A stretch of DNA of 60,296 nt, filler included, from Sluysia triapertura (taxonomy: Eukaryota), in assembly GCA_046118255.1 (NCBI GenBank). It is 4 parts of 4 records of this genome, joined end to end, with 100 filler letters (N's around TTAATTAATTAA, not from the genome) between each part and the next. Parts side by side here need not be neighbours in the genome. Positions count along the whole stretch, not along the records: positions 1 to 16,958 come from JBJNIA010194822.1; 3 more parts are not named here. One strand, written 5' to 3'. Position 1 is the first letter of the stretch. Each line of letters begins with the position of its first letter. Shown here one piece after another: positions 11,690 to 14,441 of the stretch. The notes under the pieces were generated by a model. The model had not been told where the DNA came from. It made no database searches and saw nothing but the letters and a program-made list of their open reading frames with translations. Both the position numbers and the translations under genes were made by a program.

Positions 11690-12290
11690 AAGTGTACCTA
11701 GTCGCGTACCTTTGTGTTAGGTTACGTCATTATTTGAATATTTAACTATTCTGACGGGTATTTTACCATGTTTTGAATTCACTATTTCGTAAGGTACAGT
11801 CAAGAAGTATAAATTCGTAAGTGACTCATTTGGCTCAAATAACAAATCTTGATTTTCTTCCGCTGTCGTATTTACAGGTAGTATTATTTCGGTCCATTTT
11901 GGAATAAGTGTATCCACATGCATGGACACACATACATTATCTATTAACGAATTATTTTTTGTAACCGGTTTGTTTAAAGAAGGATCAAATAATATATCAT
12001 GCAGCTTACTTAATGTATTCATACCTATAATATATGGGTATGGCAAATTTTTTGCCACTAGCAATTGTTGTTCAATAACTTGTTAGCAAATTGTCAACTT
12101 ACACGTTACCATACCTACAATCTCAATTACCTGGCCTGTCATAGCTAATAATTTAATACCAGTCGATTGAATTGATACTTTCTGAAATGCTTGAGTTCGT
12201 TATAATCAATCAATGATGACGACGAGCCTGTGTCAATTAAAGCAACTTTCCATTTATTATTTATTTGTATAGATATAGTGGGATTCTTAA
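11690..12290 (-). pseudogene. Retropepsin aspartic protease plus PR-RT spacer domain
   Basis: KVALIDTGSSSSLI (DTG at 12234-12226), after a frameshift the flap LLAMTGQVIEIVG and IIGMNTL; then IPKWTE...IPVRIV...HKGTRLG spacer, same frame as RT. Confidence 0.9.
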
Positions 12291-12609
12291 CCATTTCAAA
12301 TTCAATGTAGTATAATCTCACAAAATGTGCATTATGATTATCGTTGACACTAATTGAGGTTAATGAACTTTCATCTTGTTCAGATACATCATTTACAAAT
12401 TTTTGAGGCGATCTACTGCTACTATATAATGTACCTGAAATTTTTGGATAAGTTTTATGATTTTTCTTCTTTTTCTTAGATTTCGTTTCATTACGTAATT
12501 TAGTATTTAATTCAATACTTTCATTTTCTGTTTTATTGTCACTCATTTTAATATTATGTTCTTCCAATTTAGAAAGTCTTTCATGTAAACCTTTCGAAAC
12601 AAATGGTCT

Positions 12610-14441
12610 CTCAAGCCAAGGAATAATTCCTAAAATAAGTTTCCAACTAAAACCGATAATTTTATATAATTCATATGTAGACAATATTTGTTGGAAAAGT
12701 AGTTTTATTATAATGATTATATAGTAAACTCCTAAAAAGCCAGCCATTGTCTGACCAAAAATTAGAAATTTTCCCCATATCATCTTCATTGCTCCCTTAG
12801 CTGTTCTTTCAAAATGATCCGCTGATAATAACCTTTCATAATTTGGTTTATCGCCTGCATCCCCTATGGAAGTTTCTACTATTTCCGTCAAAATTCTGTT
12901 GCGAGTTTGAGGAAATAACAAATATTTTCTAGCATCATCCATAGCTTTTTTATCATATAGACCACTCTTCATTAAATCTTGAATACGATCAAAATGTATG
13001 TTGTTTTGTAAATTAGTAATTTCTAGGTTTCTCGGTGGCGGTATTGGTATCAGTGATGGAGCTACAACCCATGTTGTCTCTGATAATTTATATGCTGGAG
13101 CAAATAAAGGTGAACATTTAATTTTAGATACTTTTGATATATCCGGTAGTAATAATCTTGTAACCGGTTCCATATAGATAACTTTATTTTTATAAATAAC
13201 TGGTAATTCGTGAGTACATTCGTTAGTACGATTAATATAAACATCAACTTCTTTACAAGTGAAAGTTTGTAATAATTCACCCATTATTCTACTAAAAATT
13301 CCTTTACCTAATGGAATAACTGGAGTGGCCATACTAGGATTAGTCACAATCAGTGCCATTTTTGTACGTAATATTTCACGGTTTAGTTTACAATCATTAA
13401 TAATCATTTCTCTGTAAAGATCTTCTATTTGCCTTAACTGATGATGATATAAAAAGTCCGCTTTATTGTTAAAATAAGTTATGAAATTAACATCCTTATG
13501 CAATAAATGAAAATTAGACTGCTTTACTTTGTTTTTAGTTACAAATATTTTATCATAATTAGTATTATAAACTGACTGACCACATTTTTCAACCTTACCT
13601 TTTCTTATTAACCTAATCGCATCATCCGTTTTATTAGCAATTAACACAACTGGAGTGCTTGTTTCTATTAATGTTTTTTCTTTATATTTTGCATTATTTA
13701 CATTATTATCATTATTTATAACATCATGAGCAGATGAAAATATTTTTCCTTTAATTGTATCAAAATTGACTGTTTTTAAGTATACTAGACTACATTCGCG
13801 ATTTTCTACATCATAAATAGTTGTATATTTTCCATCGAAACATGATTTTAATTCTAATTTGCAAAAAGACCTTTCTAACATCATTTTTGTGTCCGGGTCA
13901 AATGCTACTTCAGTATTCTTAATTTCAATAGTACAAGTATCATTAACTAATGCTTGTCGAATCTTATTACCTTTATTCCAAAATTCTCCGTATTCGCAGG
14001 TACCATCGTACGCTAAACTGTCTACTACAAATATTTCTTCTTGTATTATAAAACCTGGTTTTGCTTTCAGAATTATTTTGGAGTCCATTTGTATTTCATG
14101 AGTTTGAAAAGCGTTATAACAATTTTTGGTGTAATTTCAAGATATTCTTCTATCGTTGGCTGCTTAATCAATGAAATATGGCTATTATGTCCACACCATC
14201 TAATTGATCTTTTTCTAGAGACTGCACATTCATATGCTTTAATATAAATATATACTCTTTCTTGATAAATATGATAAATCTGATCGTATTGTTTAATAAA
14301 TTTATTTGGGTACGCATCAGGGCATTTTTCTACATCCATTAATGAAAATTTTGCTCCAAGTGTTGCATTTTCACAATCAAACGCTTTAATGGATTGTGCA
14401 ACAGGTATTCCTAAAATTATAGTCATAAATTGTGCTAACAT
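12610..14441 (-). pseudogene. Envelope fusion glycoprotein, chuvirus-G/gB-like (class III) family
   Basis: Signal MLAQFMTIILGIPVAQS then AFDC..FSLMDVEKC, C..S..IRWCG, TYFNNKADFL, CKLNREIL, GELLQTFTCKEVDV...CTHELPV...PVTRLL...IKCSP...YK...W, and a double hydrophobic anchor (FGQTMAGFLGVYYIIIIIK / IGFSWKLILGIIPW); one frameshift near 14080. Confidence 0.8.

Follow-up and report, generated by a model that had tools for sequence, protein, structure and literature searches.

The 60,296-nucleotide stretch of Sluysia triapertura DNA analysed here, which we call the window, contains a degenerate Ty3/gypsy retroelement copy that lacks gag. We consider it probable that intact relatives of this copy encode Gag, a fusogen, the pol enzymes and an FN3- or Ig-like protein in one open reading frame (ORF), as a chain that would make four membrane passes and whose cleavage would release two glycoproteins, one for fusion and the other likely for attachment. 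The domain content and order, the open junction between env and protease, the single ORF of the relatives, the hydrophobic segments that follow the integrase and, for one relative, the FN3 fold are established below, and the paired signals and anchors suggest a multi-pass polyprotein that yields two glycoproteins. The surface protein after the integrase and the multi-pass topology are the new part of this account. We found no description of either in the published text searched, and a first-pass annotation of the same DNA had overlooked the FN3 membrane protein.

The element lies on the minus strand, and the window is colinear with amino acids (aa) 378 to 2554 of its nearest relative, P0004, tail included (Table 1). 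P0004 is 2,627 aa long, begins within gag and has about 56-57% identity in env. Compared with it the window copy has six frameshifts, and with five in-frame stops and no gag this copy is itself unable to make the polyprotein. A genetic code with TAA readthrough was considered and dropped, as the stops sit where relatives carry different residues and frameshifts are abundant. A profile from the gag of four relatives found no gag in any of the six frames of the window; capsid and CCHC domains are present in the relatives P0005, P0012 and P0013. The ubiquitin-like spacer remnant was recovered in the window by tblastn with the L001 polyprotein (E 0.057) and with a profile of five relatives (E 0.001). 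Neither the window nor the contigs L001 and L002 yielded an LTR pair, the window copy being truncated and the contigs short, and the truncated copy likewise yielded no primer site in the window and no purine tract at the threshold used.

Table 1. Features of the retroelement copy, with positions counted along the window
Feature	Position	Strand	Remarks
Ubiquitin-like spacer remnant (precedes env in relatives)	14588..14701	-	About the 5' end of the surviving copy
env N-terminal part: predicted signal peptide and first Cys motifs	14076..14441	-	Separate frame, 14076-14534
env ectodomain, membrane anchor, basic linker and protease N-terminus	12145..14136	-	Single open frame
Protease remainder, spacer and reverse transcriptase (RT)	10802..12172	-	RVT_1 E 7e-37; stops 12085, 11719
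RNase H	10248..10814	-	RT_RNaseH_2 E 2e-34
Frameshifted integrase with zinc finger, core and GP(Y) motif	9126..10303	-	Integrase_H2C2, rve, motifs
Predicted second signal peptide	8859..8945	-	Integrase frame; hydropathy peak 2.27; ends A-x-A
FN3-like domain 1	8598..8843	-	Pfam fn3 E 0.0099, under curated cut-off
Second FN3-like domain (likely), anchor and short tail	8029..8601	-	Frameshifted from domain 1

In DNA run X1, possibly the source from which the window itself derives, 10,644 contigs aligned to positions 4000-16900 of the window. Their summed depth, which is not a copy number, was about 38,000-47,000 over most of env, 10,000-21,500 over the post-integrase tail and 20 at 14775-15205. 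This depth shows that the element family is highly repeated. Because family coverage drops to single-copy level beyond about 14700-14860 and a contig with zero differences spans 14656-15260, the copy in the window is cut at its 5' end. Among the family contigs, 14 sites are listed as varying in the N-terminal frame of env (first 40 of 42 rows), and 11 of them are third codon positions (p 0.0007), a bias that would be expected if the family's env were under purifying selection.

The env frame is open from the ectodomain through the anchor and the basic linker KSKKKKKNHK into ALIDTGSS, so the junction between env and protease is intact, as the first-pass annotation had stated. That annotation gave the ORF as 12145..14088; the open frame stood, and its true extent from stop to stop is 12145-14136 (663 codons), with 14088 marking the first in-frame ATG, an internal Met. 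At the base composition of the window, the chance of an open run of 663 codons is about 1e-27, and that of 146 open codons, roughly the stretch from the anchor to the DTG, is about 1e-6. By hydropathy the anchor covers aa 457-488 of the frame (about 12673-12768), and the DTG lies at about 12234, in the start of the protease, for which the frame matches positions 3-33 of the RVP profile (E 0.036). The proposed fusion to the protease thus holds in this copy for the DTG start, about the first 30 residues; the remainder lies past a frameshift near 12160-12190, after the DTG. The cysteine patterns divide in a similar way. GE...C..V.V...C..ELPV...P.TR.L is in the main frame, but the xDC...SLxDVxxC start lies in the second frame, 14076-14534, so that a frameshift near 14100-14130 interrupts env. 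The main frame has 56% identity to P0004 aa 479-1121 and the N-terminal part 51% to aa 378-495; the predicted signal peptide at the start of env is internal in the relatives.

The ectodomain in the main frame matches the Pfam family PF24664 (Monjiviricetes_fusion) at E 6e-77, and the N-terminal part matches positions 4-110 of the same profile at E 4e-14. These matches bear out the resemblance to chuviral glycoproteins that had been noted earlier and support assignment of the glycoprotein to the Monjiviricetes/chuvirus-G-like (gB-type) family. Structure prediction, which the first-pass annotation had proposed as a check, gave a divided result. The top Foldseek hits of the env model are chu-like and xinmo-like glycoproteins, the best chu-like hit at E 4e-12, but the AlphaFold model of the env frame, built on a 9-row alignment, is poor (pLDDT 40; TM-scores to viral G about 0.08), and a class III fold was not confirmed by it. 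The sequence match to herpes gB was not significant (E 1.3), and no gB came up when the PDB was searched with the env profile.

A set of 12 relatives with env was assembled from three protein searches and a metagenome scan; among them is P0012, which is encoded by L002; P0010, a fragment without env, is excluded from this count. In 10 of the 12 (P0004-P0009, P0011-P0013 and L001) a single ORF encodes both env and a protease domain, which answers the concern raised with the first-pass annotation that the fusion might be unique to this copy. The other two, P0002 and P0003, end before the protease, and both have fused counterparts close by: P0005 is the tree sister of P0002, and P0011 is a cluster mate of P0003. 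Two of the three protein searches were set to retrieve longer proteins, a choice that favours fusions, and the near-length protein search returned two proteins that both stop short of the protease. The evidence supports an env-protease fusion that is real and common to the relatives, not a chance rearrangement. The junction or the FN3 tail could be an artefact of chance rearrangement or assembly, such as a nested insertion or a neighbouring host gene, given that the copy is heavily decayed, gag-less and part of a gapped assembly. We regard this as highly improbable: the identical order occurs in uninterrupted ORFs of other records, the tail in the window is homologous to that of P0004, and many related contigs of run X1 cover the tail as they do env and pol.

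Complete relatives, of 2,900-3,900 aa, begin with Gag and a spacer, continue through env, one or more proteases, RT, RNase H and integrase, and end in the tail. A search of viral contigs gave no relative. Their composition varies around this order. Four of them (P0006, P0007, P0013 and L001) have three aspartyl-protease-like domains per polyprotein, with C2H2 zinc fingers between these domains in P0006 and P0007. In P0005, gag, env and two proteases are followed by ankyrin repeats, in an ORF without RT or integrase. Other host-like modules are Bcl-2 hits in P0002 and P0005 (under the cut-off) and a ubiquitin-like domain in P0012. Exonuclease domains of RNase T type are encoded further downstream in ORFs of their own, at L001:10617-12107 and L002:12085-13473, together with small coiled-coil-like ORFs, and the exonuclease ORFs recall the DEDDy ORF3 described for rotifer LTR elements (PMC5408684). 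The database entry of P0004 assigns it to a metagenome bin of Flavobacteriaceae; it probably comes from animal DNA that was sorted into a bacterial bin.

The pol order of protease, RT, RNase H and integrase is of the Ty3/gypsy (Metaviridae) type. The best solved relative of the RT is that of Ty3 (E 4e-53; next group E 6e-38, in a PDB that holds few reference lineages). A GPY motif follows the integrase core in all seven relatives that have an integrase, and the window reads YDGP before a stop. These features support classification of the element as Ty3/gypsy, and the earlier reading of a gypsy element with env 5' of pol is upheld by the RVT_1, RNase H and integrase domains that follow env. Membership in BEL/Pao was considered and rejected, as the RT is Ty3-like and the integrase domains are of gypsy type.

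Trees of env and RT, built from the nine elements with both genes, recovered the same groupings and always placed the window as sister to P0004; one pair in the RT tree is unresolved and another is weakly supported. This congruence points to an old association between env and the rest of the element. The first-pass annotation had instead proposed a new, independent capture. If a single gypsy lineage had recently acquired its glycoprotein from a chuvirus, this would fit the best viral structural hits of the model, which are chu-like. However, identity to viral G is 11-20% (13 Foldseek hits at E up to 0.001, from the poor model) vs 34-65% to the envs of other elements, env and RT have matching trees, and the literature, as far as it was covered, favours an ancient association of env with gypsy elements (PMC13524379). 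Elements with the GAG-ENV-POL order have also been published already. We therefore think a recent capture improbable. A non-retroviral endogenous chuvirus element was likewise rejected, given the same low identity to viral G and the continuity of env with the protease.

The layout in which env precedes the protease in frame is already on record from flatworms and roundworms, which makes the original finding, as first stated, an ordinary one. The nematode NERVs of Sacco et al. 2022 reportedly encode gag, env, pro and pol in an uninterrupted ORF whose glycoprotein resembles that of RNA viruses, are said to be restricted to nematodes and to have separate helicase or small ORFs, and are not known to have an FN3 tail. 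According to the text section on Burro/GYPSM1, a giant gypsy element of planarians, env lies in frame between gag and pol and hits mononegaviral fusion glycoproteins, a case that its authors call the first of its kind (PMC6431247; Arkhipova and Yushenova 2019). Burro resembles the element studied here in this single polyprotein, and the ubiquitin-like and BCL2-like modules that precede its env may correspond to the ubiquitin-like remnant in the window and the Bcl-2 hits of the relatives. It differs in its ORF1 of 4,873-5,140 aa with MATH, BIR and ankyrin domains, against 2,600-3,900 aa for the relatives here. P0004 has no MATH, BIR or ankyrin Pfam hit, in a protein that starts within gag, and the corresponding 5' part of the window copy is missing. 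We do not file the element as Burro proper. The text section on Burro mentions no post-integrase FN3/Ig membrane protein (PMC6431247).

A broader survey reports gB-type env across Ty3/gypsy elements, finds the GAG-ENV-POL order in three phyla (Nematoda, Bryozoa, Platyhelminthes), and counts 114 gypsy elements of arthropods that carry a chuvirus-like glycoprotein (PMC13524379; Chary and Hayashi, eLife 2026). Gypsy elements with a gB/chuvirus-like env are thus widespread, contrary to the first-pass view that such captures are known mainly from BEL/Pao. The BEL/Pao elements of mosquitoes that have a chuvirus-like glycoprotein (Dezordi et al. 2020, via PMC13524379) share the broad glycoprotein family with the present element but belong to another retroelement superfamily, the RT here being Ty3-like. 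The GAG-ENV-POL errantiviruses of the survey share with it a Ty3/gypsy pol, a gB/chuvirus-like env upstream of pol, many copies and an env that co-diverges with pol. Since GAG-ENV-POL elements are not monophyletic in that survey, the gene order may have had several origins. The main text of the survey contains no instance of "fused", "in frame", "polyprotein", "fibronectin", "immunoglobulin" or "Ig-like", and a chromodomain is the sole domain that it names after the integrase; term searches in PMC5408684 and PMC13524379 likewise found no FN3/Ig tail. Similar elements are probably already present in its table, with the tail unannotated.

The window carries a predicted post-integrase module (8029-8945), now broken, of signal peptide, FN3 ectodomain and membrane anchor. 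The frame from the integrase through the second signal is continuous except for stops at 9128, 9083 and 8846. In a leave-one-out profile comparison, FN3-like domain 1 of the window scored above 200 of 200 shuffles. The second anchor lies at about 8071-8187 (hydropathy 3.07), and the segment that contains it and the likely second FN3 domain has 23% identity to P0004 aa 2356-2554 (E 6e-6); its Atlas neighbours, at the level of a weak match, are FN3-plus-anchor proteins that include cytokine receptors. Signal peptides and anchors were called here from hydropathy and inspection.

A signal-like segment follows the integrase in all seven relatives that extend past it (P0004, P0006, P0007, P0009, P0012, P0013 and L001), and the module shares its ORF with the integrase in these proteins. 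Six of the seven have a clear second anchor (score of at least 1.5), the last segment of P0009 being weakly hydrophobic. The ectodomain is FN3-like in six and Ig-like in P0009 (Ig_3 E 1.5e-5, under the cut-off). The FN3 domains appear to be related to each other: with domain borders set by eye, six of nine scored above all 200 shuffles in the leave-one-out comparison, and support was weaker for the other three, whose scores were reached by 1, 2 and 11 of 200 shuffles. The AlphaFold model of the homologous L002 domain (pLDDT 81) is a sandwich of seven strands that superposes on a fibronectin FN3 domain with Z 10.5 and rmsd 2.3 over 84 residues, and the PDB hits listed for it by Foldseek are FN3-type. 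An FN3 fold is thus supported by modelling for the L002 homologue, and the domain of the window itself is assigned as FN3-like from its sequence. Searched against PDB sequences, the FN3 profile had no significant match, and its top three hits were FN3 proteins (E 0.3-0.4).

These segments suggest how the polyprotein may be threaded. Gag would be cytosolic, the first signal would direct env into the lumen, and the first anchor would return the chain, leaving protease, RT, RNase H and integrase in the cytosol. After the integrase, the second signal would place the FN3 domains in the lumen, and the second anchor would be followed by a short cytosolic tail. Because the hydrophobic segments are paired, the chain would twice pass out of the cytosol and back into it. 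In L001 this would happen three times, as an additional signal-FN3-anchor cassette lies between its second and third protease domains (score 33.9, against 11.7 for the best of 500 shuffles); membrane passes would then be added in pairs, as the topology requires. Signal peptidase could free the N-termini of both ectodomains on the lumen side, and the protease or proteases of the element could release Gag, RT and integrase from the anchors on the cytosolic side. An extra protease domain lies between the integrase and the second signal in P0006, P0007 and P0013 and could free the integrase from the membrane. Processing would yield a putative class III fusogen along with an FN3/Ig glycoprotein of type I, the two in a fixed ratio, and Gag and Pol should be made in equal amounts, given the single ORF, unless splicing or early termination intervenes. 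Both glycoproteins may be displayed on particles or on the cell surface, for enveloped, cell-to-cell spread, and the FN3 protein would most likely aid attachment or cell contact.

Alternatively, the FN3/Ig protein may have no part in entry and may instead act on the producer cell as accessory, host-modulating cargo: a decoy resembling a cytokine receptor, an adhesion protein or a means of immune interference, comparable to the Bcl-2-like and ubiquitin-like inserts of Burro. These elements do gather host-like modules, including Bcl-2, ankyrin and ubiquitin-like domains and the RNase T-type exonuclease ORFs of L001 and L002, and cytokine receptors are among the Atlas neighbours of the tail. The tail also varies in the number and type of its domains and is far less conserved between the window and P0004 (23%) than env (56%) or RT (70%). 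Rapid divergence is, however, also expected of a receptor-binding protein. Moreover, the tail is kept in seven of seven relatives that extend past the integrase, on all main branches of the tree, whereas the Bcl-2, ankyrin and exonuclease modules are patchy, and as part of one ORF it is made in a fixed ratio with env. We consider the cargo explanation unlikely, though it deserves more weight than an artefact or a recent capture, and favour a role in attachment.

An attachment role would have parallels among viruses. Flaviviruses make a multi-pass polyprotein that is cut by signal peptidase and a viral protease, herpesvirus gB acts with the Ig-fold protein gD, and paramyxovirus F acts with a separate attachment protein. 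The membrane-threaded polyprotein and the pairing of a fusogen with a beta-sandwich partner are likenesses by analogy. We know of no partner protein of this kind established for any retroelement env. Herpes gB needs partner glycoproteins, and a conserved, co-translated FN3/Ig surface protein would be a concrete candidate for the means by which gB-type retroelement envs find target cells. A membrane-threaded retroelement polyprotein would be predicted to follow distinct rules in how it is processed and in its ratio of Gag to Pol. The division of labour between fusogen and attachment protein, if true, is one known in herpesviruses and paramyxoviruses and not in reverse-transcribing elements. More tentatively, a widespread lineage of invertebrate gypsy elements may be enveloped viruses whose polyprotein, of flavivirus style with four to six passes, supplies a two-part entry apparatus: a class III fusogen together with a separate attachment protein of FN3/Ig type that evolves fast and can be swapped, a generalisation that we hold possible but doubtful.

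Other sequences surround the element in the window. The region 4400-7450, a repeat in run X1 with depths of up to 12,000, contains broken plus-strand frames at 5119-5553 and 6261-6632, antisense to the element. Neither frame had a Pfam, gag or Atlas match, and their interpretation as a gag or Bcl-2-like remnant is thus unsupported; the region could be the 3' region of the element or another repeat. Adjoining the truncated 5' end of the element on the plus strand is a single-copy frame of 87 codons (14717-14980) without a Pfam match. A 483-bp element at 15269-15751 has terminal inverted repeats starting CAGTG, TG/TA flanks and very high depth in run X1, and is likely a non-autonomous insertion of Tc1/mariner type; a related fragment lies at 1720-1810. 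An integrase fragment of a related gypsy element occurs at 39038-39603 on the minus strand, with 37-46% identity to the relatives. Host sequence is also present. An Ataxin-2-like region at 1904-3104 on the minus strand (LsmAD E 3e-8) has long frames with one stop and one frame change, which may reflect a pseudogene, small introns or assembly error, and an exon of an FHA-domain host gene lies at 53467-54057 on the plus strand (E 7e-14).
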